A stretch of DNA of 64,000 nucleotides from Bryobacterales bacterium (GTDB lineage Bacteria > Acidobacteriota > Terriglobia > Bryobacterales > UBA6623): NCBI GenBank assembly GCA_965248365.1, contig CBDFJA010000004.1, positions 342,187 through 406,186 of the forward strand. Direction: 5' to 3'. Numbering within the stretch: position 1 is the stretch's first letter; the number at the start of each line of letters is the position of its first letter. Under the pieces are notes generated by a model. That model was not told where the DNA came from. It did not search any database and worked only from the letters and a program-made list of their open reading frames with translations. A program made the translations under genes and the position numbers. This document shows, in pieces, positions 1 through 28,505 of the stretch.

Positions 1-118
1 GCTTCCGATGGCAGTCCCGATTTTTTCACCCCTGTCCACTTCCCGCTGATTTTACCCGCTGATGCCAGCCGGCTTACGCGGGTGGCGCTCGGCGCGGTCC
101 CCATTGATTGACGAATCC

Positions 119-628
119 TCATGGGTTGGGTTTAATCGCAAACAGTGCTGCGCCGTAGTCGACCGGCTGTGCGTTCGAGACGAATCGCTTGACGACGACG
201 CCCCCGATCTCTGCTTCGATCTCGTTCATCAGCTTCATGGCCTCGATGATGCAGAGCACCTGGCCGCTTTTGACTTTGTCGCCCACTTCGACGAAGGGGG
301 GGGCGTCGGGAGAGGACGCCTCATAGAAAGTCCCCACGATCGGGGCGCTTACCATCGCCAGATCCTCCTCTTGCTCGGCCGGTTCCTCGGGAGGCGCCGC
401 GGGAGCCGGGTTGCTCGCTGGCGCGACCGCCGGAGGCTGCGGGGCTTCGCCGATCGAGGGGGGGGCGGAAGCAACCACAACGTAAGGGGGCGAGTTAGGG
501 TTGTCTGACGGTCCACCGCGTGGAAAACGGCGGATGCGGAGCTTCTCATCTCCTTTTTCGAATTCGAGCTCCGCGATGTCCTTTTCGATGGCCGTGTCGA
601 TCAGGGCCTTGATCTGTCTTAAGTTCAT
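119..628 (-). CDS. accB: Acetyl-CoA carboxylase biotin carboxyl carrier protein
   Basis: N-terminal 'LIDTAIEKDIAELEFEKG', Pro/Ala linker, 'SAPIVGTFY', biotinylation motif 'IIEAMKLMNEI'. Confidence 0.95.
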   Translation of the reverse strand: MNLRQIKALIDTAIEKDIAELEFEKGDEKLRIRRFPRGGPSDNPNSPPYVVVASAPPSIGEAPQPPAVAPASNPAPAAPPEEPAEQEEDLAMVSAPIVGTFYEASSPDAPPFVEVGDKVKSGQVLCIIEAMKLMNEIEAEIGGVVVKRFVSNAQPVDYGAALFAIKPNP

Positions 629-675
629 GGAATAGCCGAGTTCTGCCGCGCGCTAGGAGGCGCAATCCGGGGGGA

Positions 676-1788
676 TCAAAACTGCCGAAGCTCGCGGGAT
701 GTCGAGGTGAGCACCTGGCAACCGTTTCGCTTGACGAGGACGACGTCTTCAAGCCGGGCTCCTCCGACGCCTTCCACGTAAGCGCCCGGTTCGATCGTCA
801 CGACCATACCGGCGGCTAGTTTCCCGTCCTGGTTGGGCCCGAGGCGCGGTCCCTCGTGAATCTCAAGCCCAAGTCCATGTCCCGTCGAGTGGGTAAAGGC
901 CTTGTCGAGCTTGAACTTGCGCAGCACCTGGCGGGCTTTGCGGTCCACGGTTTTGGCTTTAATACCGGACCGAACTTCGGCCACCGCCGCGGAATGAGCC
1001 TCTCGGACCGCTTTGTAAATCGTCCTGGCTCGCCGGTCCAGGCGCCCGAGGCACAGCATACGAGTCATATCACTCGTATAGCCATCGAGTATAGCACCCT
1101 GATCGACGACGACGAGGGCCGCGGGTGGGAGTCGGCGGCGGGTCGGTCGCGCATGCGGCAGCGCGGATCGCTCTCCCCCGGCGACGATGGTGTCAAACGC
1201 CGCCCCGTCGGCGCCGAGCCGGCGCATTTGGTACTCGATCTCGGCCGCCAGGCGCGCTTCCGTCCATGGGGGTCTGAGTTGCCGGCAAGCTCGCTCGAAG
1301 GCTTCGGAATTCAACTTGACCGCCCGGCGAATTCGTTCCACCTCGGCCGCGCTCTTGATCAGCCTGAGTGTTTCGACAACACCACTGAGCGGATCAAGAC
1401 GCCGGCCGCGAAGGCTTTCCCGGAGGTGAAGATACGTCTCGAACGAGACGCGGTTTTGCTCGAAGCCAAGGCGCCGGATGCGACGTTTCCCGATACTGTC
1501 GGTCACCGCGCGGAGAGGCTCGTCGCGGGCGACTACGATCTCGACGCCGTGGGTCTGCTGCCCGGCCTGTGTTCCGTAGCGCCCGTCCACATAGAGAACC
1601 GCCCGTTCCGGATCGACCAACAAGTAACCGAGGCTGCCGGTGAATCCCGTGAGGTAACGGAGGTTGGCGGGTCCCGCGACCAGAAAATATTCGTGCCCGC
1701 CGCGGGCCAGGGCCCTGCGTAGCGCCCTCAGGCGCGAGGGCCCTTCCGTTTCGAGTTGCCGCTCCCCAACCTGGGCGGCGGGGGTCAT
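676..1788 (-). CDS. Xaa-Pro aminopeptidase/dipeptidase (M24B, creatinase-N plus pita-bread domain)
   Basis: All five metal ligands present: VVDQG, GYTSDMTR, TGHGLGLEIHE, TIEPG, RLEDVV; upstream of accB. Confidence 0.9.
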   Translation of the reverse strand: MTPAAQVGERQLETEGPSRLRALRRALARGGHEYFLVAGPANLRYLTGFTGSLGYLLVDPERAVLYVDGRYGTQAGQQTHGVEIVVARDEPLRAVTDSIGKRRIRRLGFEQNRVSFETYLHLRESLRGRRLDPLSGVVETLRLIKSAAEVERIRRAVKLNSEAFERACRQLRPPWTEARLAAEIEYQMRRLGADGAAFDTIVAGGERSALPHARPTRRRLPPAALVVVDQGAILDGYTSDMTRMLCLGRLDRRARTIYKAVREAHSAAVAEVRSGIKAKTVDRKARQVLRKFKLDKAFTHSTGHGLGLEIHEGPRLGPNQDGKLAAGMVVTIEPGAYVEGVGGARLEDVVLVKRNGCQVLTSTSRELRQF

Positions 1789-2570
1789 TCGACGGCCGGT
1801 GAAAGCCGAATCCTCAAGCTGCCGGGTTGGGACGATATCTCGACGTCGGGGAAGGAAACGACGTCGAAGACAATTCGGGATACCGGCGGATCCGCTCGGT
1901 ATTGCCCAACCCGGACACGTTCCATAGAGGGATGGGAGATCGGCTGTGATCGCTGGGATTTGGGAATCGCGACGCGAAAGCCGGGGATGTCGATCACCAC
2001 TCTGTTCGGGTTATCAACGCGAAACGTCGTGTACTCGGGAGTCCCCTCGGCGATGATGACGACCTGCACCACGTCCGGCTGGGTCACCTGGCGAAGTTGC
2101 GTCAGCCTGCCGCCGGAGGCGGGCGGATCTCCGGGAGAGGGATCGACGATTGCCGCTCCCTGTTGTGAGGTCGCCGGATCGGGAGGAGAAGCCGCCGGAG
2201 TGGAAAGGGTTGACGGTTCCGGGGAGGCGTCGGCGAGAGGCGCATCTTCGCCGGGATCAACGACGGTTCCAGCGTCCGCCGCCGGATCCGGATCTTCGAC
2301 CGAGGGTTCCGTTCCCGGCGCCGCGGCGGCGGGAGGGTTCTCTGGCGCCGCCGGAGCAACCGGCGCGCTGGAGGCTTGATTGCCCGTCACGTCTGCCGCT
2401 TCGTCAAGGAGCCCGAACCCGAGGCGAAGTATCGCCAAGCCGAGCGCCAACAGGACGATCGCCAGCAGAAGCTCTCGTCGAGAAATGAAGGCCGACCAGC
2501 CCCGCGGCTCGAGCGCTGATTGCCACCCGGGCGGCTTGATCCGAGGACGCAGCAGGTTAATCTCGATCAT
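1785..2570 (-). CDS. PilN-like N-terminus (INLL motif + TM) fused via Pro/Ala/Asp linker to a C-terminal AMIN domain
   Basis: Starts MIEINLLRP, one TM helix, low-complexity linker, AMIN-like 'FRVDNPNRVVIDIPG...VRVGQYRADPPVSRIVFDV'. Confidence 0.75.
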   Translation of the reverse strand: MIEINLLRPRIKPPGWQSALEPRGWSAFISRRELLLAIVLLALGLAILRLGFGLLDEAADVTGNQASSAPVAPAAPENPPAAAAPGTEPSVEDPDPAADAGTVVDPGEDAPLADASPEPSTLSTPAASPPDPATSQQGAAIVDPSPGDPPASGGRLTQLRQVTQPDVVQVVIIAEGTPEYTTFRVDNPNRVVIDIPGFRVAIPKSQRSQPISHPSMERVRVGQYRADPPVSRIVFDVVSFPDVEISSQPGSLRIRLSPAVE

Positions 2571-3693
2571 GGTCTGGGAAACCGCGTAGAGCCAATCCTA
2601 TGGCCAGTGTCATCGCTGGCTTGTACTCATCTATCAGCTTGCCGGCGTAGCTGGTCGGGGAATAGGAGATGTTCCTCATCGGATCTAGCTGATGGACGGG
2701 AAGGCCCAGCTGTTCGTGCAGGGCTTCTTCGAGCTGGTTGCTGCCAACCGCGCCGCCTGAGAGATAAACGGACTGCGGGCTATCGGGCGCCGCCGCCTCG
2801 ACGAGCTTTTCCCACAGCCCATCGACTTGGGCAAGAACGCGCTCGGGGAGACTGCTCGGCGCGAGGGTGATTTGGCGTCTGGCGACGGAAACATGTCGGG
2901 CAAAGCGCAGTGTCGGCCCCCGCATGAGACAGACGATCAGGTGGCGCGTGCTGACGTGTAACAGAACGCAGGGCGATTTCGCGTCGGGCTCGCGGCTGTG
3001 CGCGAATGCGTTCGCCAGAGCGCAAGCTTGGACGTCGACGAAAGCCGCGTTTTTGCCGGCGAGCACGATGGTCTCACGCAGCCATTCCACCTGCTCAGCC
3101 GGAGAGCTGACCCAGAAGACCTCCGACGGGGGTTGATCTCCATCGGCGCCCAAAGGCTGATAGTCGACCAGCGCGTTTTCGATCGCGTAGGGAAGAGTCT
3201 TTTCGGCGGCTCGGCGGACCATATCGTCCAGCCCCAACTTATCCTCGTCGGGCAGCGAATCACATTGGCAATAAACTTTGTCGCCGCCCACGGCGACGGC
3301 GACATGGCGCGCTCGGATCCGGGACTCCTTGAAGAGGCGCTTGATTTCCAACGCGATTTCAATTCCATCCGTCAGAGTTCCCTCGGTAACGGCGTCGCCG
3401 GGCGTGGGAGCGATGGCAGCCTGCTTGAGCGTGATTCGACCCTGCGGCCGATGCAGCAGCACAGCCTTGATCGCCGTCGAGCCCATGTCCAGACCCACTA
3501 GGGCCAGTTTCCATCGGGCGGCCTTGCCAAGCCGTGGCGGCTTCGAACTTTTTGACGCCGGAGCGGTCGGCTGAAGCTCCGATGCCGTGCTGTCGTTTTC
3601 TTCCAACTGGAACCTCTCTGGGCTTCGCTTTGATCCCTCGAAGATTCGATAGGTCGAAAGACGAGTCAACCCTAACCTACAGTATTTCAGCAA
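2557..3693 (-). CDS. pilM: PilM-like actin-fold (FtsA/MreB-like) pilus assembly protein; start uncertain
   Basis: 'LVGLDMGSTAIKAVLL', 'AVAVGGDKV', 'VDVQACALANAF', 'VYLSGGA', 'LAIGLALRG'. Confidence 0.8.
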   Translation of the reverse strand: MLKYCRLGLTRLSTYRIFEGSKRSPERFQLEENDSTASELQPTAPASKSSKPPRLGKAARWKLALVGLDMGSTAIKAVLLHRPQGRITLKQAAIAPTPGDAVTEGTLTDGIEIALEIKRLFKESRIRARHVAVAVGGDKVYCQCDSLPDEDKLGLDDMVRRAAEKTLPYAIENALVDYQPLGADGDQPPSEVFWVSSPAEQVEWLRETIVLAGKNAAFVDVQACALANAFAHSREPDAKSPCVLLHVSTRHLIVCLMRGPTLRFARHVSVARRQITLAPSSLPERVLAQVDGLWEKLVEAAAPDSPQSVYLSGGAVGSNQLEEALHEQLGLPVHQLDPMRNISYSPTSYAGKLIDEYKPAMTLAIGLALRGFPDHDRD

Positions 3694-3871
3694 ATACGGC
3701 TAGGTAGCAATCCGTCTGTCGAGTATTGTAGCTGGTCAGCTCGGGCGAAATGAATCGGTCCCTACGCTTGAACCGCGACACGCTCAAGCCCATCAGCAGC
3801 GGCGCGATTTCCTCGTCTCCTCGGTCGGCCTCTTTTCGTGACCGTATTTGCGACCTGAAACAATCGGGCCG

Positions 3872-4492
3872 CTATCTCAAAAACTTGGCCAGGTCCTGAG
3901 CGAGCAGCTCAGCCCGGTCGGCCAGATTCTTGGCTATCGCCGGGTCGCGCTTACGGGCGGCCTCGGCTTGGCTAAGAAATCCGCGAATTCGCCGCACGGC
4001 GTTGCTCTGATCCGGCGTGAGGCTTCGATCGACAATACCAGCCAGAGTTTTCCGTACGCTTCGAATGCTGTGTTCAATAGCACGGTCGTAGGCTCGCCGT
4101 TGGTCCGCCGTCAGGATCTTCCCGAGCTGAGGAAACCGCCGGCGAGGAGAATCGCCCGAAAAACCCGACGCCTCATCGGTCGCCGTCGTTTCGGCGACCT
4201 TTTCCACTGTCTCGGACAAACCGGGATCTTGTCGCCTGGGATCATCGGCAAGAGCCAAGGGCGCCGAATCTCGACGTATCGCCTCCGCCGGGATTTCCCG
4301 CGACGGCGCGAGACGCTGTTGTGTTTGAGGCTCCGACACCGGTTCGGCCGGGGCGGGCGGGGCCTCTGCCACCGCCGGAACTGGTGGGAGCGGTGAAACG
4401 GGCGTCTTCGCCACGTCGGTTCTCGTCCGGCAAGATGCCGCCAGAGTCAACATGAGGGCCAGAAGAAGCCGAAGCCCCGGGTGTGTGCCCAT
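3872..4492 (-). CDS. Putative lipoprotein with Pro-rich linker and C-terminal helical domain
   Basis: Lipobox 'LTLAASC' after a hydrophobic stretch; co-oriented directly downstream of the kinase; start taken at ATG 4492. Confidence 0.65.
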   Translation of the reverse strand: MGTHPGLRLLLALMLTLAASCRTRTDVAKTPVSPLPPVPAVAEAPPAPAEPVSEPQTQQRLAPSREIPAEAIRRDSAPLALADDPRRQDPGLSETVEKVAETTATDEASGFSGDSPRRRFPQLGKILTADQRRAYDRAIEHSIRSVRKTLAGIVDRSLTPDQSNAVRRIRGFLSQAEAARKRDPAIAKNLADRAELLAQDLAKFLR

Positions 4493-4607
4493 GCGGCGCG
4501 GTCCAATGATCTCTCCAACCACGCTGTCCTTTCTTGTTGGCGTGCCGTCGCCGGCGGACTTTGTCCGAGTACTCATTGGTGATCGCGCGGTCCGTTCCCG
4601 GTTTCAA

Positions 4608-6560
4608 CTACGACATCTCGGTGGCGGTGGTTGTTTCGTTGTCGACGCGGCGCGATCGATTGCCGGCGAAGCGGTCCGAGCCCCCGGGAAGCAGCTGAGA
4701 TTCCGTTTCCTTCAGGGCTCCGAGCCGAAGACGAAACTCCGTCCCCCTGCCGAGATCGCTGCTGAAATCGATTGTCCCGCCATGAAGCTGCACGACCCGA
4801 AACGTCATGGCTAATCCGATGCCGGAACCGCGTCCCTTGGTCGTGAAATACAAGTTATAGATCTTGTCGCGTATTTCGCCCGGTATTCCGCCTCCCTGGT
4901 CTCGAATCGTCAGCAGCCAGTCCGGGCCGGCCCTGCGGACGCCGATTTCCAGCTTTCCTCCCTGCGGCATGGCGTCAATGCCGTTGACGACAACGTTGAG
5001 AATTCCCTGCATCAGCAGATCGCGATCTCCCCGAACCTCAGCGTCGGCGACTTCGTTGTGAGTGACGATCTCGGCCTTCCGCCTCTCGGCTTCCGGGGCG
5101 ACGAGAGTACGGACTTCTTCGACCAGCTTCACCAGGTCAAGCGGTCGAAAATCGAGGTCGACCGGTCGGGTAAAATCCAAGAAACTCTTGACCACGCGAT
5201 CGAGCCGAGTGATCTCGCGGGCAATGACTTCAATCTCCGTCCGGACCGTTTCCGAGGAACCATCCAACTTGGACTTCAATACCTCCAGATGCAAAGCGAT
5301 CGAGTTCAGCGGGTTCTTGATTTCGTGCGCCGCCCCGCCGGTAAGACGGCTGATCGAGGCGAGGCGGTGGGAGACGTCCAATTGAGATTCGAGTTCGCGT
5401 CGGGGAGTGGCGTCGCGCAGCGTCACCAGCGTACCGACTCGTTCGTGGGTGGGGAACTGCTCGAGAACTTCAACACTGACCAGCAGGTGGATGGGCGTCT
5501 CTCCGTCGCGATCGAGCGTGACCGCGGAGTCCGCTACGGCTCGCCGCAGGTGAACGGCACTCTGAACCAGCGCCCCGAGATCGGTCGAGTCAGGGAAGAC
5601 CTCCTCGATCGCCGCTCCCATCATTTGCCAGCGGCCCCCGAGAATGCGCTCCGCCGCGCGCCCGGCCATGACCAGGCGGTTGTCATGGCCAAACAGTAGA
5701 ACGGCGTCCTCCATCCTCTCGAGCAACTGATCCACGTTGGCCTGTAATTGCGTACGGTCGGCCTGGACGCCTCTAAATTGCTCACCGAGCAGACTGAGCT
5801 TGGACTCGACCACGGCCACTTCCTTGGCGGGGTTCTTCGAGGGGCCGCGGTCCGCCAGGACTTCGCCGCGGCTGATACGGTCGATAATGTCGCTGATTCT
5901 GGCCAGCGGCCGGGACGCGATCCGCGAGGCGAGGACAGCCAGCAGGACCGACAGCAGCAGAGACACGGCGGAGACCACCGCCAGATCGCGGATACGGGGC
6001 ATCACTTGGCTTCGAAGCAGGACGGACGAGAGAATCACTCGAACCGTGAACAGCGGCGCTTGCTTCTCGAGTATGCCCAGACGCCGCGTCACCTCATAGT
6101 CTTGATTGCGGGCCAGGACCTCCTCGAGCTTGGCCCACAAAGGTTTTTCCTCGAAGTCTTCGAAGCGGGGCAGAGAATCGATCTTCCGCCCCCCCTTGGA
6201 GGGAAAGGAAGCGGCCAAGACACGGTCGTTCTTCCCGCTGACGAGCGCTTCGACAATCACCGGGGAACTCCCGACGAGCTTCTGAAGCAACGTAGACAAG
6301 CCGGCGTCTTGTTCGACGATCTCCGTCCAGATTTTCTCGACCTCTTCGTCGCTTTTCGGGGGAGGCTGCCAGCTAGGCGTTTGCTCGTTGACAATCTGGA
6401 GAATGAAGCTTTCCACCTGCGTGGCATTCATGTTCGCCAGCTCCAACGCGTCTCGAAAGCGAGTTTCGACCACGCCATGGACGTGGAGCAGGGAAAGAGC
6501 CAGCACCACCGTCACCACCAGGGCAACGATCGATAGCTGCAGGCGGGTTCTCAAAGACAT
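4608..6560 (-). CDS. Sensor histidine kinase (2 TM, HAMP, PAS-like, HisKA, HATPase)
   Basis: H-box 'AHEIKNPL', N-box 'NVVVNG', 'DQGGGI', 'FTTKGRGSGIGL'. Confidence 0.93.
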   Translation of the reverse strand: MSLRTRLQLSIVALVVTVVLALSLLHVHGVVETRFRDALELANMNATQVESFILQIVNEQTPSWQPPPKSDEEVEKIWTEIVEQDAGLSTLLQKLVGSSPVIVEALVSGKNDRVLAASFPSKGGRKIDSLPRFEDFEEKPLWAKLEEVLARNQDYEVTRRLGILEKQAPLFTVRVILSSVLLRSQVMPRIRDLAVVSAVSLLLSVLLAVLASRIASRPLARISDIIDRISRGEVLADRGPSKNPAKEVAVVESKLSLLGEQFRGVQADRTQLQANVDQLLERMEDAVLLFGHDNRLVMAGRAAERILGGRWQMMGAAIEEVFPDSTDLGALVQSAVHLRRAVADSAVTLDRDGETPIHLLVSVEVLEQFPTHERVGTLVTLRDATPRRELESQLDVSHRLASISRLTGGAAHEIKNPLNSIALHLEVLKSKLDGSSETVRTEIEVIAREITRLDRVVKSFLDFTRPVDLDFRPLDLVKLVEEVRTLVAPEAERRKAEIVTHNEVADAEVRGDRDLLMQGILNVVVNGIDAMPQGGKLEIGVRRAGPDWLLTIRDQGGGIPGEIRDKIYNLYFTTKGRGSGIGLAMTFRVVQLHGGTIDFSSDLGRGTEFRLRLGALKETESQLLPGGSDRFAGNRSRRVDNETTTATEMS

Positions 6561-6638
6561 GACGATCCGACCGTCCGGTGTCGCCTTGACGCGGCACGCC
6601 GCGAGCGTCCGCCACAATCGGCGAGGAGCGCCCGATGG

Positions 6639-8036
6639 TCAGTGGGTTCCATACTCTTTCAACTTGTTGTGCAGAGTCTTGAGGCTGATGTCAAGAATTT
6701 TCGCCGCGCGGGTCTTATTGTTGCCGGTGTGCTCGAGGGTGCGCAGCAGCAGCGCCTTTTCGGCCTCCCGCACCTTCGTGCCCACAGGGAGTCGGACGAC
6801 ATTCGGGTCGGCCGGCTCGGCCAGCGGCGCCTTCTCTCCCGGGGCGGAAAGGTTGCCCAGCAAGTGCGAGGGCAGGATGGTGCCTTCCCCCGCCAAGATC
6901 ACCGCGCGTTCTAAAACGTTACGCAATTCGCGGACGTTCCCCGGCCAGTGATAGCCGCGAAACTTCTCCACCACATCCGGGTGCAGATCGACCACCCGGC
7001 ATTCGTGCTTTTTGTTGAGATCCTCGACGAGCGCCTCGGCGCTCGGCAGTACATCTTCCTTGCGCTCGCGCAGCGGCGGCAGGTGGATGCGAAAAACGTT
7101 GAGCCGATAGTAGAGATCTTCCCGAATCTCGTTGTTGGCGACGGCGTCGTCAACGGGTTTATTGGTCGCCGCGATGACGCGGGTGTCGACCTCGATCTCT
7201 TTATCGCCGCCGAGGCGGCGCACCCGCGAGTCTTCCAGGACCCGCAGGAGCTTGGCTTGCGTGCCGACTGGCATGTCTCCGATTTCGTCAAGCAGCAGCG
7301 TGCCGCCGTTGGCCAGCTCGAAACACCCGGCGCGACGCTGAACGGCACCCGTGAAAGCGCCCTTTTCATGTCCGAACAATTCGCTTTCCATCAGCGATTC
7401 CGGCAAAGCCGCGCAGTTGATGGCGACGAAGGGGTCGTTCTTGCGCGGGCTGAGGGCGTGAACGGCGCGGGCGACCAGCTCCTTGCCCGTGCCGCTCTCG
7501 CCCGTGACCAGGATGGCCGCTTTGCTGGGCGCGACCTGCCGGATCGTCGAAAAGACCTCCTGCATGGCAGGGGAGGGCCCGACCAGCCCTTCGAGCAGCC
7601 CTTGATAGCTCAACTGGCGCTGCAGCCGGTCCGTTTCTTCAGTCAAGCGCCCCTGAGCGGCGGCGCGGTTGATCAGGACCCGAAGCGCGTTCGCGTCGAT
7701 TGGTTTCTCCAGAAACCAAAACGCGCCGAGGTCGCGGACGGTCTTGAGGGCATTTTCGATGCTGCCGAAGGCGGTCAACACGATGGCCGCCGGCCGCGGA
7801 CCGTCGACCGCCAGGCGGCGCAGCAGTTCGAAACCGTCCATGCGCGGCATGCTGAGGTCGGTCAGCATGACGTGAGCGGGGAAAGAACTCAGTTTTTCGA
7901 GGGCCTCCTGACCGTCGGAGGCCGTCTCGACGGCAAAACCCCAGGAAGAGACCAGACTGGCCAGACCATTTCGCTGGTCCTGCTCGTCGTCGACGATCAG
8001 CACGCGCGCCGGCGCGGGCGTCTGCGCTTCACTCAT
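6639..8036 (-). CDS. Sigma-54-dependent response regulator (NtrC/AtoC family)
   Basis: REC domain, 'GESGTGKE', 'FGHEKGAFTGA', 'LLDEIGDM', 'WPGNVREL', Fis-type HTH. Confidence 0.95.
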   Translation of the reverse strand: MSEAQTPAPARVLIVDDEQDQRNGLASLVSSWGFAVETASDGQEALEKLSSFPAHVMLTDLSMPRMDGFELLRRLAVDGPRPAAIVLTAFGSIENALKTVRDLGAFWFLEKPIDANALRVLINRAAAQGRLTEETDRLQRQLSYQGLLEGLVGPSPAMQEVFSTIRQVAPSKAAILVTGESGTGKELVARAVHALSPRKNDPFVAINCAALPESLMESELFGHEKGAFTGAVQRRAGCFELANGGTLLLDEIGDMPVGTQAKLLRVLEDSRVRRLGGDKEIEVDTRVIAATNKPVDDAVANNEIREDLYYRLNVFRIHLPPLRERKEDVLPSAEALVEDLNKKHECRVVDLHPDVVEKFRGYHWPGNVRELRNVLERAVILAGEGTILPSHLLGNLSAPGEKAPLAEPADPNVVRLPVGTKVREAEKALLLRTLEHTGNNKTRAAKILDISLKTLHNKLKEYGTH

Positions 8037-8335
8037 CGCCTCTTATTCTACTGGAGTGGGTTGACCGCTTTTCACGGCGCGCCGCAGATCGCCTCGAGTG
8101 TAACACTTGCCGGATTCACCAACTCCTAACCTCGAATCAACTATTCTTGGCCATCTTTCGGCCCGGCGGAGGCCCCGTTATTTAGCGTGACAAAACGAGC
8201 AGGCGATCGCCGCCGGTGTGGGGTTGGTCTGGGCGATCCGGGCAATCATAAGTTAACTTGATCGGCCCCGGAGAGGGAATCCGACGGCTTTCCCCCGAGT
8301 CGAACACAAGGCCTTCGATCGCGCTGGCTCGCCGG

Positions 8336-9274
8336 TCAGGCTCCGGCTGTTTCCGCGGAACCGGCCAGCATGCGGGCAAGCTGCTCCAGGCAGGCGTCTG
8401 AAATAGCGCGGTACAGCAGGACGTTCTTTCCATTCACCTGAGTACGTACGACGCGCTCGGCCATCAAGTCACAAAGGAAAATGTCGGCAGCCTCCCCTCG
8501 GAATTCCCCCCGTGCGGAGGTCAGCAGGTATTCCTGCAAAGAGTGCCTTTGCCCGGCGACGGGGGCAAGAACCGCGCGCGCCACTTCAAGAAAGTACCGG
8601 CTGACGGATACGAGCGCTATCAAGGACGGCTCTGTCAGGCTGCGAATCGTTTCTATGTGCTCGTCGACCGAGGAATAAGTGATCGGAACGAGCGCGCGTT
8701 TCGTGGGCAGCAGCGGCTTTATCTGCTCGACGTGGCCGGGAGCACAAATGACGAGCGCGCCCACCGCCCGGCTTCGATTCGATGTTAAATCATCCGGCGA
8801 ACACGCTTTGATGGGGATGTGAAACCTTTCCTTGATCTCCATGGGGATGAGCACGCGCAGGCCGGCGTCGTCGGAAACGACGAGCAGGTGGTCAGGCGGC
8901 CCTTCGAGCATGCGCTGCTGAAAACGCTCGCTCAGCTGCCGCAGCGAGTAGCCTTCGCGCTGCGCCGTACTCACCGTCGCATCAATCAATTCGTCCAAAT
9001 CCTTCGCCCCTGCCGCCGGCACGCGCTGTTGCTCCGAATGAGAACGCACGACCAAAGAGATCCCGCGGCGTTTCACAACCAGCCTCTGGAGAACCGGGTC
9101 TTGGTAGGCCTGACTGACCGTGTTGTGGTGAATTTTTAGTCTGCGGGCCAATGCCCTTACGCTTGGCAACGGATCGCCGGGCTTCAACTGGCCGGTGCCG
9201 ATGGACAGAACAATTTGCGCCGCCAGTTGCTCGTGAACCGGGACTTCGCTTTCTTTGCTGATGCGAATGTCCAT
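8336..9274 (-). CDS. GntR family (YtrA-like) transcriptional regulator with C-terminal extension
   Basis: 'VPVHEQL...LKPGDPLPSVRALARRLKIHHNTVSQAY'; divergent from the radical SAM operon. Confidence 0.85.
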   Translation of the reverse strand: MDIRISKESEVPVHEQLAAQIVLSIGTGQLKPGDPLPSVRALARRLKIHHNTVSQAYQDPVLQRLVVKRRGISLVVRSHSEQQRVPAAGAKDLDELIDATVSTAQREGYSLRQLSERFQQRMLEGPPDHLLVVSDDAGLRVLIPMEIKERFHIPIKACSPDDLTSNRSRAVGALVICAPGHVEQIKPLLPTKRALVPITYSSVDEHIETIRSLTEPSLIALVSVSRYFLEVARAVLAPVAGQRHSLQEYLLTSARGEFRGEAADIFLCDLMAERVVRTQVNGKNVLLYRAISDACLEQLARMLAGSAETAGA

Positions 9275-9431
9275 TTCCCAGCACCCTTGGTTAGCCGGCA
9301 CCCTCGGCGGGCCAGATCGAGGCCCGGCTCTCAGCTAGCTCCCCGTGTCGACAATCGTGCAGGATCGAAAAATGGGGGCTGCCACGAATTCGCTTCCCGT
9401 CATGGCCCGGAAAAAAGCGCTTAGCCTGAAG

Positions 9432-9459
9432 CGAATTGGCCGGCTGTACCCTATTTTTC
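9432..9459 (+). promoter_or_regulatory. Candidate cis-regulatory motif shared with 34545-34572
   Basis: CGAATTGGCCGGCTGTACCCTATTTTTC is 24/28 identical to the reverse complement of 34545-34572; both lie about 90-100 nt upstream of an operon start in the same orientation. Confidence 0.35.
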
Positions 9460-9560
9460 GCGACCTTCCGCATTGTGGCACTTCAGAAACTGTCACGCCA
9501 TGGGTTTTCGCTCCCGGCGTCCGCCCGTAAACTCGTTTTCAGAACACGGAGGAACGTCCC

Positions 9561-10928
9561 ATGAAATCGCGTCGCGTCTTATTGCTGGCCATGAGTGGTG
9601 TGCGGGTGAAAAGCGACGAGCTACGGCGGCTTGGCATGACCTTGCCCGGCTTTATCGAACGAGGGCAAGTCATTGCGTCCCTACCGACTCTTTCTTTGCT
9701 GACGCTGGCCGCTCACACGCCGGAGAACTGGGAGGCGGAGTACCGGGAGATCGACGAGCTCACCGATGGCGCTGCCGCTCAGATTGCCGCCGCCGGCTAC
9801 GACATCGTCGCCATCTCGGCCCTAACGGCGCGCATTCTCGACGCTTACGAAATCGCCGATCAGCTTCGAGAAGCCGGTGTTACGGTTGTGCTGGGAGGCC
9901 TCCACGTCACGGCGCTTCCCGAGGAGGCCCTGGCCCACGCGGACGCCATCGTCGCGGGCGAAGCCGAGCTGCTCTGGCCGGAGCTGCTCTCGGACTTCGA
10001 AACCGGCACTCTACGTCCCCGGTATTCATCCATGGAGAGCCGGCGGCGCTTTGACCTCGCGCAGGCTCGGGTCCCCCGCTACGACATGCTCGACGTCGGC
10101 CGGTACAACCGGCTCACACTCCAGACGAGCCGGGGTTGCCCGTTGGACTGCGAGTTCTGCGGCGCGTCGCGACTCATTTCGCCCTACAAGATCAAGCCCC
10201 TCGCTCAGGTACGGCGCGAGCTGGAAGCGATTCTCAACATCTGGCCCAAGCCCTTTATCGAATTGGCGGACGACAATACTTTCGTCTCCAAGAAGTGGTC
10301 TCGCGAGTTGGCGCAGCTGTTCTCCCAGTACCGAATCCGGTGGTTTACCGAAACCGATCTCTCGGTGGCTGACGATGATGAGCTTCTCGAGTTGCTGGCC
10401 CTTTCCGGTTGTGCGCAGGTTCTGGTCGGACTCGAGTCGGTGGACCCCGCCGCCCTCGGCCCTATCGACAGCCGGCGCTGGAAGCAGAGCCGGCTCGCCG
10501 GCTACGCCGCTAAGATCCGTAAGATCCAGTCTTACGGGATTACCGTCAACGGCTGCTTCATCTTTGGATTCGACCAGGACGATTTGAGCGTGTTCGACAG
10601 GACGAGGGAGTTTGTTCAGGCCAGCGGGCTGTCGGAAGTCCAAATCACCATCCTCACTCCGTTCCCCGGCACGGGGCTATACAACAGACTCCAATCCGAG
10701 GGACGGTTACTGAAGCCGATCTTCTGGGACTCCTGCACGCTCTTCGATGTGACCTATCGCCCGAAGCGGATGAGCGCCGACGAGCTCGAGGACGGCTTTC
10801 GCGGCCTGATGCGCGATCTCTACTCCCCGGCGCAGTCCGCCAGGCGCAAGGAGATTCGAAAGGAATGCTACGGGCGGCGGCGCGACGGCATGACGGCGGA
10901 CCGCCTGTCAGGAGACGAACATGTCTAG
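9561..10928 (+). CDS. B12-binding domain radical SAM protein
   Basis: Cobalamin-binding region 'VVLGGLHVTALPEE' followed by CxxxCxxC 'RGCPLDCEFC', 'ADDN', 'VGLES'. Confidence 0.92.
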   Translation: MKSRRVLLLAMSGVRVKSDELRRLGMTLPGFIERGQVIASLPTLSLLTLAAHTPENWEAEYREIDELTDGAAAQIAAAGYDIVAISALTARILDAYEIADQLREAGVTVVLGGLHVTALPEEALAHADAIVAGEAELLWPELLSDFETGTLRPRYSSMESRRRFDLAQARVPRYDMLDVGRYNRLTLQTSRGCPLDCEFCGASRLISPYKIKPLAQVRRELEAILNIWPKPFIELADDNTFVSKKWSRELAQLFSQYRIRWFTETDLSVADDDELLELLALSGCAQVLVGLESVDPAALGPIDSRRWKQSRLAGYAAKIRKIQSYGITVNGCFIFGFDQDDLSVFDRTREFVQASGLSEVQITILTPFPGTGLYNRLQSEGRLLKPIFWDSCTLFDVTYRPKRMSADELEDGFRGLMRDLYSPAQSARRKEIRKECYGRRRDGMTADRLSGDEHV

Positions 10929-11403
10929 CACTCCGACAACAATTGACGGCGTTGTCCACGCCCCTGGCCGTTCACAGGCACGGGGTCACTCGATGGGCGG
11001 TCTCAACCGCATCATCGCGTGGACGGGCATGGCCTGCGGGGCGGCCCTCGGCCTCATCATGGGTCTGTGGTCTTTTGACGGCCCCGTCGCTCCGCCGAAC
11101 TTCATCGGCGATTACACGGACACGGCGCGGCGGTTGCTGCGGCTAGGGCACATCGCTTGTTTCGGAATCGGCATACTGAACCTTTTGTTGGTGCGGGAGC
11201 TGTTTAACTCCGGGGATTCGCCCCGGGCCGCGCGCCATGCCGCGCAAGCCATGAATTTCGGCAATATCTTCCTGCCCCTCGTGCTCGTGATCGCCGCCGT
11301 CTACGCGCCGGCCAAATACCTGCTGCCTTTCCCGGCTCTTAGTGTTTTCGCCGCTCTTTGCCTGGCAGCGTATGTTGTGGGCGCCGGGAGGCAAAGGCGC
11401 TAG
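10921..11403 (+). CDS. Hypothetical 4-TM membrane protein
   Basis: Four hydrophobic segments, 'RRLLRLGHIACFG' with intramembrane His; start overlaps the rSAM stop. Confidence 0.7.
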   Translation: MSSTPTTIDGVVHAPGRSQARGHSMGGLNRIIAWTGMACGAALGLIMGLWSFDGPVAPPNFIGDYTDTARRLLRLGHIACFGIGILNLLLVRELFNSGDSPRAARHAAQAMNFGNIFLPLVLVIAAVYAPAKYLLPFPALSVFAALCLAAYVVGAGRQRR

Positions 11404-11417
11404 TAAACGATAAGCAG

Positions 11418-12680
11418 ATGCTGAGAATCTCATCCAAGGAATATCGAAGGCGCCTCGAATCGCTTCAGACCAGCGTCGCGGAAGCCGGCCTGGACGTGTT
11501 CATCGTCTCGGCCCTGGACAGCCTCTACTATCTGACAGGCGCCGGATTCGAGCCGCTGGAGCGCCCGTTCTTTCTGCTGATCCGTCCCCGCCAGGCTCCC
11601 ATCCTGTTAGTGCCAAAGCTCGAACAGGAACACATGAAGAAAGCCTGTAAGGTCACGGAGCAGGACATTCGCACCTACTGGGAATATCCGGCTCCGGCGG
11701 GTCGCGGGTGGCCGGACGCCCTCCATCACTTGATCGGGCAGGCCAAACAGATTGGGGTGGAGCCCACACTCCCGCAAGAAATCGCGGAAGCGATGAGGGG
11801 CTACACGATTCGTGTCGCGCCGCTGGTCGAACGGCTGCGGCTGATCAAGTCCCGCACCGAGATCGCGCTGATCCGTCGCGCGGCTCGCTACGCTGATCTT
11901 GGAGTTCACCGTCTCCTGGCAGCTTCGTACCGGGGGGCCAGCGTCGCTGAGGGTTTTGTCCAAACGCGCCTCGTCACTTTACAAATCATCCGCGAGGTCG
12001 ATGATTGGGATCCGGTGACAACGAAAGTGGTGATGGCCACCTGGCCAGCCCCCCGCAGCGCGATGCCACACTCGATTCCTGACCTCAACGACCGCCTCCG
12101 CGAGGGGCCGCACGTGGCGTTAGTGCTCAGCCGCGTCAACGGCTACGCCGCGGACAGCGAGCGAACGTATTTCACCGCACGGCCGTCAGCCGACGTGCGC
12201 GAAGCGTTTGCGGCCATGACGGAGGCCCGCCGTATCGCGCTGGGGATGATCAGACCCGGTGTGCCGTGTAGCGAAGTAGATGCGGCTGTGAACGACTATT
12301 TGCGAAAGGAAGGGTACAGCGGCGAAGACCGACGCTTACACCGCACCGGCCATGGGATCGGTCTCGGCAACCATGAAGCTCCTTGGATAGCCGAAGGCAG
12401 CGAGGACCGGTTGGCCGAAAACATGGTGATCAGCGTTGAGCCGGGGATCTACTTGCCCGGTGTCGGCGGCGTGCGACATTCCGATACCGTCCTGGTGACC
12501 AAGAACGGGCATGAGACGCTCACCCGCTTTCCACAAGAGCTAAGCTCGTTGGTTATCAGCGGCTGGAAACCGTTCACGCGCCTCAAAGGGATGGTTGTGC
12601 GGTGGAAGCTGGGGTTGACTGCGAAGTGCACCATACCCTCTGTGACCGCCGGATCGGCGGTTAGCGAGACGATGTCATGA
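11418..12680 (+). CDS. M24-family hydrolase with non-canonical metal site (creatinase-like)
   Basis: Creatinase-N 'LYYLTG', 'GYAADSERT', 'TGHGIGLGNHEAP', 'SVEPG', 'GVRHSD'; first Asp and last Glu ligands appear absent. Confidence 0.85.
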   Translation: MLRISSKEYRRRLESLQTSVAEAGLDVFIVSALDSLYYLTGAGFEPLERPFFLLIRPRQAPILLVPKLEQEHMKKACKVTEQDIRTYWEYPAPAGRGWPDALHHLIGQAKQIGVEPTLPQEIAEAMRGYTIRVAPLVERLRLIKSRTEIALIRRAARYADLGVHRLLAASYRGASVAEGFVQTRLVTLQIIREVDDWDPVTTKVVMATWPAPRSAMPHSIPDLNDRLREGPHVALVLSRVNGYAADSERTYFTARPSADVREAFAAMTEARRIALGMIRPGVPCSEVDAAVNDYLRKEGYSGEDRRLHRTGHGIGLGNHEAPWIAEGSEDRLAENMVISVEPGIYLPGVGGVRHSDTVLVTKNGHETLTRFPQELSSLVISGWKPFTRLKGMVVRWKLGLTAKCTIPSVTAGSAVSETMS

Positions 12681-13576
12681 ACACGAATCCCCGGGCGGAG
12701 CCTATGGCGACAAAATCAGCCAAACCCGCTGGCCCGCTGACCGCGCGGAGCCGGCGTCGGCGTCTGATCATCCCTTTGGGCTTTAGTCTTCCGATCTTTG
12801 TCGGCATCCTGCTGACGCCGCCTATAGCCCAAGACCTCACTTACCACGACTTCGTCGATCAGCGGTCCATCTTGGGCATCCCGCACATGTGGAACGTGAT
12901 GTCGAATTTGCCGTTCGCGGTGATCGGCGCATGGGGCTGCTGGTGGTTGCTCCGTCAAAAGGATCTCTCGAAAATCTTTGCCGAGCGCTGGGAACTCGCG
13001 GCCTACCTCGTCTTCCTCGTCGGAGAGTTCCTCACCTGTTTCGGCTCGGCCTACTACCACGCGGACCCGAATAACCACACCCTCGTCTGGGACCGCCTGG
13101 TCTTCAGCCTTCTGCTGACGTCGTTTTTCACGATCGTCGTCACGGAGTTTGTCAGCAAACGGGCCGGGAAAATCATGCTCGCGCCTGTGGTTCTGCTGGG
13201 CCTCTATAGCGTTTTGCACTGGTATGGGAGCGAGCTGGCCGGCGCGGGGGACCTGCGCGTATACATCGCGGTTCAGTTCTACCCGGTGATCGCAATTCCC
13301 CTCATCATTTGGATGTTCCCTTCGCGTTACGGGCAGAGCCGCCCGTTCCTGCTGCTGTGGGCACTGTTTGGGCTGGCCAAAATCTGTGAGCTGCTGGACG
13401 CCCCGATCTACGAGCTCAGCGGTTTCTGGAGCGGCCATACGTTCAAGCACCTGATCGCCGCGGCGGCCACCTACTGCGTCCTTTACACCCTTCGCCGGCG
13501 CAACGCGACGTTGTCGCTGGCGCGGGCCAACCCGGTTGTGGGCTCGCTGGCGGAGCCGTCAGGAGAGGTTCGATGA
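12677..13576 (+). CDS. Alkaline-ceramidase-like intramembrane hydrolase (CREST superfamily)
   Basis: About 7 TM, 'YHDFVDQR', 'NVMSNLPF', SxxxH 'GSAYYH', 'WDRL', HxxxH 'GHTFKHL'. Confidence 0.8.
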   Translation: MNTNPRAEPMATKSAKPAGPLTARSRRRRLIIPLGFSLPIFVGILLTPPIAQDLTYHDFVDQRSILGIPHMWNVMSNLPFAVIGAWGCWWLLRQKDLSKIFAERWELAAYLVFLVGEFLTCFGSAYYHADPNNHTLVWDRLVFSLLLTSFFTIVVTEFVSKRAGKIMLAPVVLLGLYSVLHWYGSELAGAGDLRVYIAVQFYPVIAIPLIIWMFPSRYGQSRPFLLLWALFGLAKICELLDAPIYELSGFWSGHTFKHLIAAAATYCVLYTLRRRNATLSLARANPVVGSLAEPSGEVR

Positions 13577-14093
13577 GAAGTGCTGCCGGAATTTTGGCGT
13601 CGATGCTTACTCTGTTTGCGTTCATCGCGGGAGTCCTAATGCTTTCCCTGTCATCTTGTACGACCGACCAAGAAAGCCCGGAGAACGACATGGACGCCAC
13701 GTACTTCTTACCCGACTACTTCACCGCTCGCTCCCGCTTTCGCGAGGGATCCAAAGCAGCGGGCGGAAGGCTCACATCGATGCAACTGGATGCCAAGGGT
13801 CCGGCGGGAGAAGATCTGACCATCGACATCGCTTGGTGCGGGGCCGAACAGCCGCGCGAGGTTCTTCTTCATTCATCCGGTCTCCACGGGGTCGAGGCCT
13901 TTGCCGGCTCGGCCATTCAGTTACAACTCTTAGATCAAGGCCCTCCGGTGATGCCCAAAGACGCCGCGCTCGTCCTGGTGCATGTCACCAATCCCTATGG
14001 AATGGCTTGGCTCAGGAGGTTCAATGAAAACAATGTCGATTTGAACCGTAATTTCGCCGAGCGAGAGGAGGACTACAAGGGGTCTCCCCCGAT
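13573..14093 (+). pseudogene. DUF2817 / M14-family metallo-deacylase, 3'-truncated by IS4
   Basis: Lipobox-like 'SLSSC', HxxE 'SGLHGVE', 'NPYG', 'NVDLNRNF'; frame runs into the IS terminal repeat at 14094. Confidence 0.85.
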
Positions 14094-15422
14094 CACTGCT
14101 GTCCGGCTAAAAGTCGAATAGAATCAATTGGTTGGGGTCATAGGGGGATTCGTTTGGGGAGTCGGATGGCTGGAGTGCCTGTAAAAGGGGCATTTTTTCG
14201 AATTGCGTAACGCTGAGAATCTGTAGAATCTGGTAAAGACTCGCTTCCAGCCCGAGCCGTTTCCGGACGATGGCGATGAGCACGTAAATCGAGACAGCGA
14301 TCCAGATATGCGTCTTGACGGCGTTCTCGCTGGTGCCGTAAAACGAGTTGATTCGCAGATGTTGCTTGATCCACTTGAAGAACAACTCAATCTGCCAACG
14401 CGACTTGTAGATGTGGGCGATGGTCAGCGCCGGGAGCGCGAAGTTGTTGGTCAGAAACTTCAGCCGCTTGTTCGTCCGGGCGTCGAAGTAACTGACCCTC
14501 CGCAACGGGTCGGGATAGGCTTGGGCCGATTCGATGGCAGCCAGTATGACGGTCTGATCCGAGCGCAAGCCCGTGGATTTGTCGACGGGATGCGAGTAGC
14601 GCCGTTGGAGCAAGATGTTCTTCTTGGTTCGCACGACGAAGAACGACGAGCAGAGAGTGAACACGAAGAGGCGTTCGAAATCGACGTAGGCCCGATCCAT
14701 GACGTAGAACGCGCCGGCCTCCGGGCCGATCTCGTCGAGGATGTTGATGTCGTGCACTTTGCCTCCAGTAATGCGGATGAACGTGGGAATATTGCCGTGC
14801 AGATCCAGCAGCGTGTGCATCTTCACGGCGGCCTTTTGCTTGCGGAATCTCGCCCACGGAAACAGCGACAGGCAGAGGTCGATTGTTGTCGAGTCGAGAG
14901 CGTACAGAGTCTGGTCCAAGTCCACACCGATCGGGTCGTGGGCATATAACGGCCGTGCCATGCCAATCAAGACCTGCGCGAAGTCCGCGTAGATCCGCCA
15001 GTCGCGCGACTCGTTCGCATCGGCCAGTGTCGAGCGCGCTACCCTGCCGCGGAATCCCATGTGGTAGAGTTTGCCGTGCATCGAACGCAGGCACGTCTCG
15101 ATGTCGCGGAGGCTTGCCCGATAGGTCAGCTGGGCGAATGCCATCGCAAGAAACTGATCCCAGCAGGAGAAACTTTTCAGATAGGAATCGCCGCGGTAGC
15201 GCGATACACATTTCTGAAACTCTTTGCTCGGTAGGTGCTCGATCAGTTGGGAGAAAACCGTACGGCCAAGGTTCATCCCTCATTGTGCCGCGTCCGGATG
15301 CTCCGTTCAGGCGACCATTTGCGGCCTCGGGATTTCAAATCGTTCCCGGGCAAAACAGGCCATAAGACATTGAGCGGTCGAGACTTACCGTCCGATGGCG
15401 CAACTTTCCCCGGACAGCACTG
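14094..15422 (-). mobile_element. IS4-family insertion sequence, copy 1 (1329 bp)
   Basis: 13-bp IRs CAGTGCTGTCCGG / CACTGCTGTCCGG; no target duplication (TCCCCCGAT vs ATTAAAACT). Confidence 0.96.
14107..15276 (-). CDS. IS4 transposase (DUF4372 + DDE)
   Basis: 'ALDSTTIDL', 'VMDRAY', 'YKSRWQIELFFKWIKQHL'. Confidence 0.95.
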   Translation of the reverse strand: MNLGRTVFSQLIEHLPSKEFQKCVSRYRGDSYLKSFSCWDQFLAMAFAQLTYRASLRDIETCLRSMHGKLYHMGFRGRVARSTLADANESRDWRIYADFAQVLIGMARPLYAHDPIGVDLDQTLYALDSTTIDLCLSLFPWARFRKQKAAVKMHTLLDLHGNIPTFIRITGGKVHDINILDEIGPEAGAFYVMDRAYVDFERLFVFTLCSSFFVVRTKKNILLQRRYSHPVDKSTGLRSDQTVILAAIESAQAYPDPLRRVSYFDARTNKRLKFLTNNFALPALTIAHIYKSRWQIELFFKWIKQHLRINSFYGTSENAVKTHIWIAVSIYVLIAIVRKRLGLEASLYQILQILSVTQFEKMPLLQALQPSDSPNESPYDPNQLILFDF

Positions 15423-15487
15423 ATTAAAACTCTATACACGCGGGAATAGAGAACTTATGGTAGAAATCTATACATCTACATACATTT

Positions 15488-25232: not shown

Positions 25233-25234
25233 TA

Positions 25235-26331: not shown

Positions 26332-26333
26332 TA

Positions 26334-26563
26334 ATGCCGAGAGAGTTGACATCGGGTTGATTCGGGTTGTACGTGAAACTCAGTTCCGGATCGGGCGCCA
26401 TGCCATGGTCTTTCGCCCCGAAGGAAGTGGGAACGCGATCTTCTGATTCCCAGATCGACGCCCATGCTCCCCGGAAGCCGGCTTCCTCCCGCACTCGTAC
26501 AATAAACTCTCCGACCAACAAGCCGACAAACACACTCAGCAGCAGAGCGAACAAACGTTTCAT
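26334..26563 (-). pseudogene. SGNH hydrolase, 5' portion (membrane anchor through NSLGI)
   Basis: 'MKRLFALLLSVFVGLLVGEFIVR...PDPELSFTYNPN...VNSLGI' ends at the IS630 boundary. Confidence 0.8.
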
Positions 26564-26992: not shown

Positions 26993-27061
26993 TCAAAACT
27001 GCTGAAAGTAGCGACTCCTTTTTTCTGCTCCGATGTAAGGCGCCCAGTACGACTCCGTAGT
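26993..27061 (-). pseudogene. Last 22 codons of an SxtJ-family membrane protein, truncated by IS4 copy 2
   Basis: Translates TTESYWAPYIGAEKRSRYFQQF*; position directly upstream of DUF5989 fits the known SxtJ-DUF5989-SGNH gene order. Confidence 0.6.
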
Positions 27062-28390: not shown

Positions 28391-28505
28391 ATCCTAAGTG
28401 TAGAGCAATTCAGAAGCCGTTCCGAGGCGAAGGCCGAGCGACCTTCTTGCCCGGATCTGATCAGGCTCCGGCGCGAAGCGGGGCCCGTGATATCCTGAAA
28501 ATGCG

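Follow-up and report, generated by a model that had tools for sequence, protein, structure and literature searches.

In the 64-kb stretch of Bryobacterales DNA shown above (the window, in whose coordinates all positions are given unless another locus is named), a divergent pilM gene overlaps a gene for a 261-aa membrane protein that opens like the pilus protein PilN and closes with an AMIN domain. We propose, with slightly better than even confidence, that the two products form a minimal tether from the cytoplasm to peptidoglycan (PG), assembled from type IV pilus (T4P) parts and conserved in Bryobacterales and related Acidobacteriota, which would place PilM at wall sites recognised by the AMIN domain. 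Each of the three parts (PilM, the PilN tail and AMIN) is well understood by itself; what appears here is their recombination into the shortest conceivable link between an actin-fold protein and the wall, which selection has maintained throughout a deep acidobacterial clade, in a fixed block with a kinase, a regulator and a novel lipoprotein. Our literature searches found no published account of an architecture made of a PilN tail, a transmembrane (TM) helix, a linker and an AMIN domain.

The list of open reading frames (ORFs) gives a 378-codon ORF at 2557–3693 and a 261-codon ORF at 1785–2570, and the PilM stop overlaps the ATG of the second gene by 14 nt. This bears out the preliminary description of the window, made from its letters alone, which had seen a pilM-like gene overlapping a gene that starts MIEINLLRP. 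The TGA of the second gene in turn overlaps the ATG of a peptidase gene, pepP (ATGA). All genes of the block to which the pair belongs lie on the minus strand, and the features of the pair are these:

2557–3606, minus strand: variant pilM (the ORF is open to 3693), identified by TIGR01175, PF11104 and the AlphaFold2 (AF2) fold, its start placed by orthologue alignment and from the DNA
3613–3618, minus strand: Shine-Dalgarno-like GAGAGG, read from the sequence, 6 nt 5' of the proposed pilM TTG
1785–2570, minus strand: PilN-tail/AMIN gene, an ORF for a bitopic protein of 261 aa, with orthologues 93–60% identical and about 78 family representatives
2547–2570, minus strand: codons 1–8 (MIEINLLR), PilN-type tail motif and predicted PilM-docking peptide, from the family logo, identity with canonical PilN and the ratio of nonsynonymous to synonymous substitution (dN/dS)
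2415–2480, minus strand: single TM helix, residues 31–52 (AF2 on the orthologue alignment), predicted N-in/C-out
2121–2402, minus strand: Pro/Ala/Asp linker, residues 57–150, periplasmic and disordered by composition and by an AF2 predicted local distance difference test (pLDDT) score below 50
1800–2111, minus strand: C-terminal AMIN domain, residues 154–257, from PF11741, AF2 and Foldseek

The 261-aa protein begins MIEINLLRPRIK. Six Lys or Arg residues fall in its tail (residues 1–33), none in the 20 residues past the TM helix, and a conserved juxtamembrane motif, SAFISRRE, stands just ahead of the helix; the predicted topology is that of a type II membrane protein with its N-terminus in the cytoplasm and its C-terminus outside. 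The 94-aa linker is 23% Ala, 22% Pro and 11% Asp. Beyond it, PF11741 (AMIN) matches residues 166–242 with 34.0 bits against a gathering threshold (GA) of 20.5 (E 3.3e-8), and every full-length orthologue carries a precomputed PF11741 hit. AF2 models residues 154–257, with pLDDT above 90, as an eight-strand beta-sandwich of the kind seen in the AMIN domain of AmiC. When this model was compared with the PDB by Foldseek, E. coli AmiC (4BIN) came first (E 4e-4, root-mean-square deviation 2.9 Å over 117 columns), followed by M. xanthus PilQ (3JC8_Q, E 1e-3) and the B2 domain of N. meningitidis PilQ (4AQZ). The Rxxx[D/E] signature that defines AMIN (PMC2572700) occurs twice, as R190–D194 and R232–D236, and both motifs are invariant in the family. 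Profile and model thus agree with the earlier sketch of the protein as one TM helix, a long Pro/Ala/Asp linker and a C-terminal AMIN domain, the last being confirmed by fold (4BIN, 3JC8_Q) as well as by PF11741. AMIN domains are almost always N-terminal, and the ten architectures catalogued for them in PMC2572700 do not include a PilN tail, TM helix and linker followed by a C-terminal AMIN.

At its N-terminus the protein has the INLL(P) tail and the single TM helix of a PilN, and its gene directly follows pilM. What a PilN has next, a periplasmic coiled coil with a ferredoxin-like core, is replaced in the AF2 model by the disordered linker and then AMIN, and neither the PilN Pfam family (PF05137) nor a PilN NCBIfam model matches the 261-aa protein. 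Because the PilN core is absent by hidden Markov model (HMM), by AF2 and by tblastn, we do not file the protein as PilN.

The tail itself can be compared directly with that of canonical PilN. We scanned metagenome data with the pattern MIRINLL[KR][SPQ], drawn from the narrower alignment A5 since the broad family alignment A4 was too divergent, and sorted the resulting 80 loci by tblastn. Canonical operons account for 74 of them, with PilM, a PilN of 180–220 aa, PilO, and a PilQ with AMIN and secretin domains. The other six are of the kind found in the window: regulator, kinase, lipoprotein, variant PilM, AMIN protein, pepP, accB and accC, and they lack a PilN core, PilO and secretin. Where the operon is canonical, the pattern marks the start of PilN (66 distinct proteins, MIRINLLKPE...), and the TM helix starts at about residue 33, versus about residue 31 in the module proteins. 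Because canonical PilN in these 74 loci shares the motif, the TM position and the gene order, we read the tail of the AMIN protein as a PilN tail, residue for residue over the first seven to eight positions and in its geometry; that this peptide is of PilN type had already been suggested for the window. A phmmer search of the first 60 residues against the PDB returned only chance WW-domain-like matches; so short a motif is beyond the reach of that method.

The cytoplasmic partner is recognisably a PilM. The window ORF scores 136.4 bits against TIGR01175 (pilM), barely above the cutoff of 133, and its pilM gives 94.3 bits against PF11104 (PilM_2; GA 27). For PilM chains in the PDB (3JC8_M, 5EOU/5EOX and 2YCH), phmmer gives E values from 1e-25 to 7e-18. 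Translation probably begins at the TTG at 3606, giving 349 aa: a GAGAGG stands 6 nt before it, and orthologues have their ATG at the same aligned position. The AF2 model (pLDDT 86.4, with a disordered N-terminal extension at residues 1–32) ranks closest in fold to 5EOU/5EQ6, 3JC8_M (TM-score 0.76) and 2YCH (0.75), its TM-scores to PilM structures ranging from 0.71 to 0.76. FtsA structures come after the PilM structures (E 1e-18 vs 1e-27), among them the FtsA–FtsN(1–29) complex 7Q6I.

Within the PilM family, the module proteins stand apart. They are 22–31% identical to all canonical PilMs compared, vs 33–50% among canonical PilMs of different phyla, and identity among themselves goes down to 29–34%. 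In a neighbour-joining tree they form one clade at the deepest split, so that by sequence they are a deep, divergent clade of PilM. An FtsA-like actin fold has the subdomains 1A, 1C, 2A and 2B; in the alignment a segment of about 33 residues of 2B ('GGNQYT...'), present in every canonical PilM, is missing throughout the clade, as is the precomputed FtsA Pfam hit (PF14450) that canonical PilMs carry. The phosphate-1 motif GLDxGS..K and the SGG motif are invariant in module PilMs; the phosphate-2 motif reads HVSTRH in the window, with serine for glycine, and HVGA in loci L005 and L006. In the closest orthologue of pilM from a metagenome-assembled genome (MAG), at L001 8879–10011, the gene is split over two frames near codon 85, and all other loci are intact. 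This MAG has long contigs, and the split may be a real frameshift or a long-read assembly error.

The next genes in the window are pepP and accB, as the preliminary description had it, so that this pilM is not the first gene of a pilMNOPQ operon; queries for PilN core, PilO, PilP and secretin gave no tblastn match anywhere in the 64 kb, and no pilin or ATPase gene lies within them. The block around the pair is made up of these further genes:

119–628, minus strand: accB, biotin carboxyl carrier protein (TIGR00531, 156 bits), the downstream end of the conserved block in the window
676–1788, minus strand: pepP-like M24 Xaa-Pro peptidase, with Creatinase_N and Peptidase_M24 domains
3872–4576, minus strand: lipoprotein, likely start M29 at 4492, with orthologues directly upstream of pilM across the module loci
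4608–6617, minus strand: sensor histidine kinase, from HisKA and HATPase_c domains, two TM segments and synteny
6639–8036, minus strand: NtrC-family sigma54-dependent response regulator, from domains and synteny

As far as their flanks reach, all 22 related module loci have one fixed block. In L001–L006 its order is sigma54 regulator, histidine kinase, a 234-aa protein, PilM, the AMIN gene, pepP and accB, and in L007/L008, L009, L010, L011/L012, L013, L017, L018 and a 1.5-kb contig it continues into accC. The block is kept where PilM is only 33–45% identical or the AMIN protein 25–37%. The overlap of the PilM and AMIN genes occurs in eight of nine annotated loci, and that of the AMIN gene with pepP in seven of eight, the window counted. 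With flanks of ±8–10 kb, none of the 22 loci has a PilN core, PilO, PilP, secretin, pilin or ATPase gene, and the Pfam lists of module neighbours hold no flagellar genes. The PilN-core, PilO, PilP and secretin queries, run by tblastn against the window and 13 module loci, matched nothing except AMIN. The linked PilO, PilP and PilQ that define a type IVa PilMNOPQ system are thus lacking here and present in 74 of 74 control loci; conversely, pepP, accB or a two-component system is found in the flanks of none of those 74. The idea of a two-gene module holds insofar as pilO, pilP and pilQ are absent from the window and the 22 loci; it was too narrow in that the pair always travels with the lipoprotein, the periplasm-sensing histidine kinase and the sigma54 regulator.

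The 261-aa protein belongs to a family of its own. A word-indexed search returned 19 relatives of 93–30% identity, all with the tail, the TM helix, a variable linker and AMIN. Searched exhaustively with the family profile, 1.84 billion representatives yielded 2116 matches, mostly other AMIN proteins, and the full architecture is present in about 78 inspected sequences (clusters at 50% identity). In 78 of 78 family members the N-terminal logo is M-I-R/E-I/V-N-L-L-K/R, and most relatives begin MIRINLL. The juxtamembrane motif of the family is (A/S)F(I)S(R)RE, the TM helix starts at about residue 34, the linker has a median of 94 aa (22% Pro, 20% Ala) and total lengths run from 157 to 321 aa. The six closest loci are from Bryobacterales MAGs (Acidobacteriota, Terriglobia) in a species-level genome collection. 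One member is named at NCBI 'AMIN domain-containing protein [Bryobacterales bacterium]' and nothing more, and some cluster look-ups gave PilQ labels.

Between six orthologous loci, dN/dS (Nei–Gojobori) is 0.12–0.23 for the tail and TM helix (residues 1–55), 0.24–0.28 for the AMIN domain, 0.37–0.66 for the linker and 0.20–0.29 for PilM; for comparison, it is 0.08–0.14 for accB and 0.05–0.08 for the sigma54 regulator. By this measure both genes of the pair are maintained by purifying selection, which has slackened in the linker, and both evolve faster than their neighbours.

Two other proteins scored highly against the family profile, a 319-aa pentapeptide-repeat protein with a C-terminal AMIN and a 1551-aa cadherin/fn3/Calx-beta protein with three AMIN domains (P0122/P0111). 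A further AMIN protein of 687 aa (P0145, L014 3394–5457) carries four AMIN domains and a C-terminal SPOR domain, two types of module that bind septal PG, and has no obvious pilus or amidase context.

From these parts we can sketch how the pair might work. Binding of PilM by the tail of canonical PilN is established (Karuppiah and Derrick 2011, cited in PMC3724824; structures 2YCH and 5EOU), and the first seven to eight residues of the AMIN protein (MIEINLL) would likewise dock the co-translated variant PilM at the inner membrane face. The Pro/Ala spacer of about 95 residues, standing in place of the PilN core, would let the AMIN domain reach the sacculus. Among known AMIN domains, those of PilQ pull down PG and direct recruitment to midcell and poles (PMC5285504), and that of AmiC alone suffices for septal targeting (PMC2572700). 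By analogy with AmiC and PilQ, the AMIN domain of the 261-aa protein would bind PG, preferentially the septal or polar wall. PilM would then be immobilised under wall sites chosen by AMIN, where it could hold or organise a cytoplasmic partner. The canonical link to PilO, PilP or a secretin would be impossible for such a pair. In architecture, HMM, fold and tblastn make it fair to say, as had been suggested for the window, that one protein replaces the PilN-O-P-Q(AMIN) chain; the actual link from PilM to the wall is what we infer.

As for its role, the pair could act as a positional landmark or scaffold, together with the lipoprotein, the kinase and the sigma54 regulator, in the biology of the envelope or the division site. 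Such a role is likely, in preference to one in motility or in a pilus alignment complex, because the pair is in fixed association with the lipoprotein, with the kinase and sigma54 regulator, and with the housekeeping genes pepP-accBC; of all steps of the model, this one is the least certain. If the model is true, this would be the second natural case, after the flagellar cage of Campylobacterota, of pilus alignment parts taking another job. It would also offer a clean two-protein system for studying how AMIN selects its places on the wall and how PilM functions outside the pilus, and an entry into the envelope and division biology of Acidobacteria, an abundant and poorly studied soil phylum.

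Some observations weigh against the tether. PilO, PilP and PilQ, PilB, PilC and PilT, and pilins may exist elsewhere in the genome and use the pair. The tight coupling to pepP-accBC may be due to operon history only. Since the 2B segment is shortened and the phosphate-2 glycine is serine, nucleotide handling may be altered, and both nucleotide binding and the set of partners may differ from those of canonical PilM. Weak evidence in its favour comes from expression: in four metatranscriptomes, contigs of relatives 90–99% identical reach both pilM and the AMIN gene in part, at low depth, and span the PilM/AMIN junction (2474–2691), the AMIN/pepP junction (1777–2028) and the spacer between lipoprotein and PilM (3655–3951), which weakly suggests transcription and possibly co-transcription of the two genes; these contigs are unstranded and could include DNA.

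Comparison with known systems helps to delimit what is particular to the module. The type IVa PilM–PilN pair (T. thermophilus 2YCH, the P. aeruginosa PilM:PilN1-12 complex 5EOU, M. xanthus 3JC8) has the same actin-fold PilM, to which the module protein compares at TM-scores of 0.71–0.76, and the same bitopic partner encoded just downstream, usually in an overlapping gene, with a MIRINLL tail and a TM helix starting at about residue 31–34. The module differs in that its partner lacks the PilN core (no PF05137) and has a disordered linker and AMIN instead, that no PilO, PilP or PilQ is encoded nearby, and that its PilM is without the 2B segment of about 33 residues. With the AMIN domains of PilQ and AmiC, which bind PG and target the septal or polar wall (PMC5285504, PMC2572700), the module domain shares a score above the Pfam threshold, the same beta-sandwich (4BIN, 3JC8_Q, 4AQZ) and the Rxxx[D/E] motifs; unlike theirs, it is a single C-terminal AMIN on a long spacer, anchored in the inner membrane and with no enzymatic or channel domain.

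A documented precedent for the re-use of such parts outside pili is the FcpM/FcpN/FcpO cage of the Campylobacterota flagellar motor with PflA, in which PilM- and PilN-type proteins and a PilQ-type AMIN occur in genomes or operons with no other T4P genes (PMC11870540). PflA structures are weak fold matches to our AMIN model. The cage keeps full PilN and PilO homologues, carries its AMIN on a separate tetratricopeptide-repeat (TPR) protein and co-occurs with flagellar genes, whereas in the module PilN is reduced to a tail and TM helix fused to AMIN, and no PilO or flagellar genes are in the neighbourhood. The GspB/OutB scaffolds of type II secretion are likewise inner-membrane-anchored, linking a secretion machine to PG, as the title of PMC9239104 has it; GspB acts on a secretin, whereas the module has no linked secretin and is unrelated to these scaffolds in sequence.

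The most serious competing explanation is that the pair serves a T4P or related filament machine encoded elsewhere, in which AMIN has moved from PilQ to PilN and the product acts as a PG-anchored inner-membrane stator or alignment element for PilB, PilC and PilT. The PilM fold and the PilN tail are retained, after all, and PMC3724824 describes canonical PilM as anchored to the inner membrane by the PilN tail and as belonging, with PilC and the ATPase PilB, to a single integrated structure. Canonical T4P operons exist within the class Terriglobia, and in another genome (L015) a pilin gene and pilMNOPQ have a sigma54 regulator in their vicinity; our literature search returned nothing usable on T4P in Bryobacterales or Solibacter. 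We nevertheless consider this explanation unlikely, given that pilin, PilO, PilP, secretin and ATPase genes are missing from the window and from the flanks of the 22 module loci, that the periplasmic core by which PilN partners PilO is gone, that the PilM clade is so far removed from canonical PilMs, and that the block is joined to housekeeping genes.

It is tempting to go further and see in the pair a pilus-independent analogue of FtsA–FtsN. In structure 7Q6I, FtsA is bound to FtsN residues 1–29, and the logic is alike: a short N-terminal peptide on the cytoplasmic side binds an actin-fold protein, and is followed by one TM helix, a long low-complexity periplasmic linker and a C-terminal domain for septal PG. 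PMC5285504 describes AMIN, like SPOR, as a domain that binds denuded PG. Here AMIN would read septal (denuded) PG and recruit the PilM-derived actin-fold protein to the division site or new poles, and with the adjacent outer-membrane lipoprotein and the envelope-sensing kinase and sigma54 regulator would couple wall remodelling to a cytoplasmic response. If so, pilus alignment parts would have been converted into a cell-division or polarity module. The module has AMIN and not SPOR, a PilN motif and not an FtsN motif, and an actin-fold protein of PilM type and not of FtsA type, so the comparison is one of analogy only, and we regard this extension as doubtful.

Alternatively, the pair could be an accessory of the adjacent two-component system, with the lipoprotein and the AMIN protein informing the periplasm-sensing kinase of the condition of the wall or outer membrane, and PilM, as an adaptor in the cytoplasm, modulating the kinase or the sigma54 regulator. 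The order of sigma54 regulator, kinase, lipoprotein, PilM and AMIN is invariant wherever the flank is long enough, the kinase stop overlaps the lipoprotein start in L011, and the lipoprotein has a long Pro-rich linker, as do the known envelope-sensor lipoproteins RcsF and NlpE. On the other hand, no sigma54 promoter match near the genes rises above chance, neither PilM nor the AMIN protein has a domain known to bind kinases, the two-component system is generic and AtoSC-like, below all equivalog cutoffs, and synteny alone is not proof of interaction. Such an accessory role, quite unlikely in our view, would be compatible with the tether and does not exclude it.

That the pair is a decaying, non-functional remnant of pilMNOPQ is highly improbable: canonical Terriglobia pilM-N-O-P-Q does hold the pair's position relative to accBC, both genes do evolve faster than their neighbours and the L001 MAG has a frameshift in pilM, but this reading is contradicted by selection and conservation, because about 78 clusters and 22 loci, with PilM identity down to 29–34%, keep their reading frames intact, dN/dS is well below 1 on the tail, TM helix, AMIN domain and PilM, the tail motif is invariant, the gene overlaps are kept, tblastn finds no fragments of pilO, pilP or pilQ, and the L001 frameshift is possibly an assembly error.

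Descent from such an operon is another matter. The canonical PilM closest to that of the module, P0054, is 28% identical and, by the names of its near relatives, from Terriglobia; with P0054 as query, the best 120 of 7954 matches are 72–100% identical. Its operon runs pilM, pilN, pilO, a PilP-sized gene, pilQ (AMIN and secretin), a small ORF, accB and accC. Canonical Terriglobia pilMNOPQ thus lies directly upstream of accB-accC, and the module holds the corresponding place. Because of this shared position upstream of accBC, which is positional homology only, the module probably descends from a pilMNOPQ operon that lost the PilN core, PilO, PilP and secretin and in which the PilN tail and TM helix were joined to AMIN. 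The neighbour-joining tree does not nest the module PilMs within the canonical PilMs of Terriglobia. The module AMIN is 29% identical to that of Terriglobia PilQ (E 2e-7), and the family profile gives similar scores to PilQ, amidase and AMIN+SPOR proteins, so a PilQ origin of the domain is plausible, not demonstrable. The decayed pilMNOPQ operon that the preliminary description had named as grounds for giving up its proposal is thus right as to likely ancestry and wrong as to fate, the module being a fixed derivative under purifying selection.

In one canonical Terriglobia operon (L016), a 136-aa ORF without a Pfam match (15047–15457) lies between pilQ and accB and overlaps both; the P0054 contig has a 101-aa ORF in the corresponding position.

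The 234-aa protein upstream of pilM is the lipoprotein; it has the lipobox LAASC and a helical C-terminal domain of about 85 aa, and inside an otherwise variable Pro-rich linker it carries the strongly conserved motif PVSEPQT..LP..Q.IP.GAIP. Its family has no Pfam or NCBIfam match even at E ≤ 10, save for one sub-threshold DUF4398 match in one orthologue. It is always found between the kinase and pilM, in the window as in its orthologues in L002–L013. Between the two TM segments of the kinase lies a periplasmic domain of about 165 aa, and HisKA and HATPase_c come after them. The two-component system is of a generic type resembling AtoSC/NtrBC, the kinase being AtoS-like and below every equivalog cutoff. 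The sigma54 regulator is found in every module locus whose flank reaches so far, with an identity of 92–98% in L001–L006 and 76–78% in L007 and L009.

Regulatory scans found sigma54 -24/-12 matches near the genes no more often than in shuffled sequence, no sigma70 consensus sites, and terminator-like sites that were weak; Rfam gave no matches in 1–10000. The spacer between lipoprotein and pilM (3607–3871) is about 265 nt long in the window and in L001, and about 60–70 nt in L002 and L005. Just 5' of the pilM Shine-Dalgarno sequence, a conserved stretch bearing TTGACT is present in the window, L001, L002 and L005, and may be an internal promoter.

The remainder of the window holds several features that lie outside the block. 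Divergently upstream of it, a plus-strand cluster at 9561–13576 encodes a B12-binding radical SAM protein (9561–10928), a 160-aa ORF without a family, a second Creatinase_N/M24 peptidase (11358–12680), a paralogue 29% identical to pepP, and a weakly matched ceramidase-like membrane protein (12677–13576). An insertion sequence (IS) of 1.33 kb is present in four copies, at 14089–15426 (minus), 27058–28395 (plus), 29339–30672 (plus) and 50343–51676 (plus); three are 99.5–99.9% identical and one about 92%, and the element encodes a 389-aa transposase with DUF4372 and DDE_Tnp_1. The copy at 14107–15276 abuts a DUF2817 gene (13573–14121) whose match covers just positions 1–123 of a 341-position profile and which may have been truncated by the insertion. 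A repeat of about 1.1 kb at 25232–26334 and 54755–55849 (98.8% identical), with two small ORFs of about 145–150 aa and 176–185 aa, is probably another IS.

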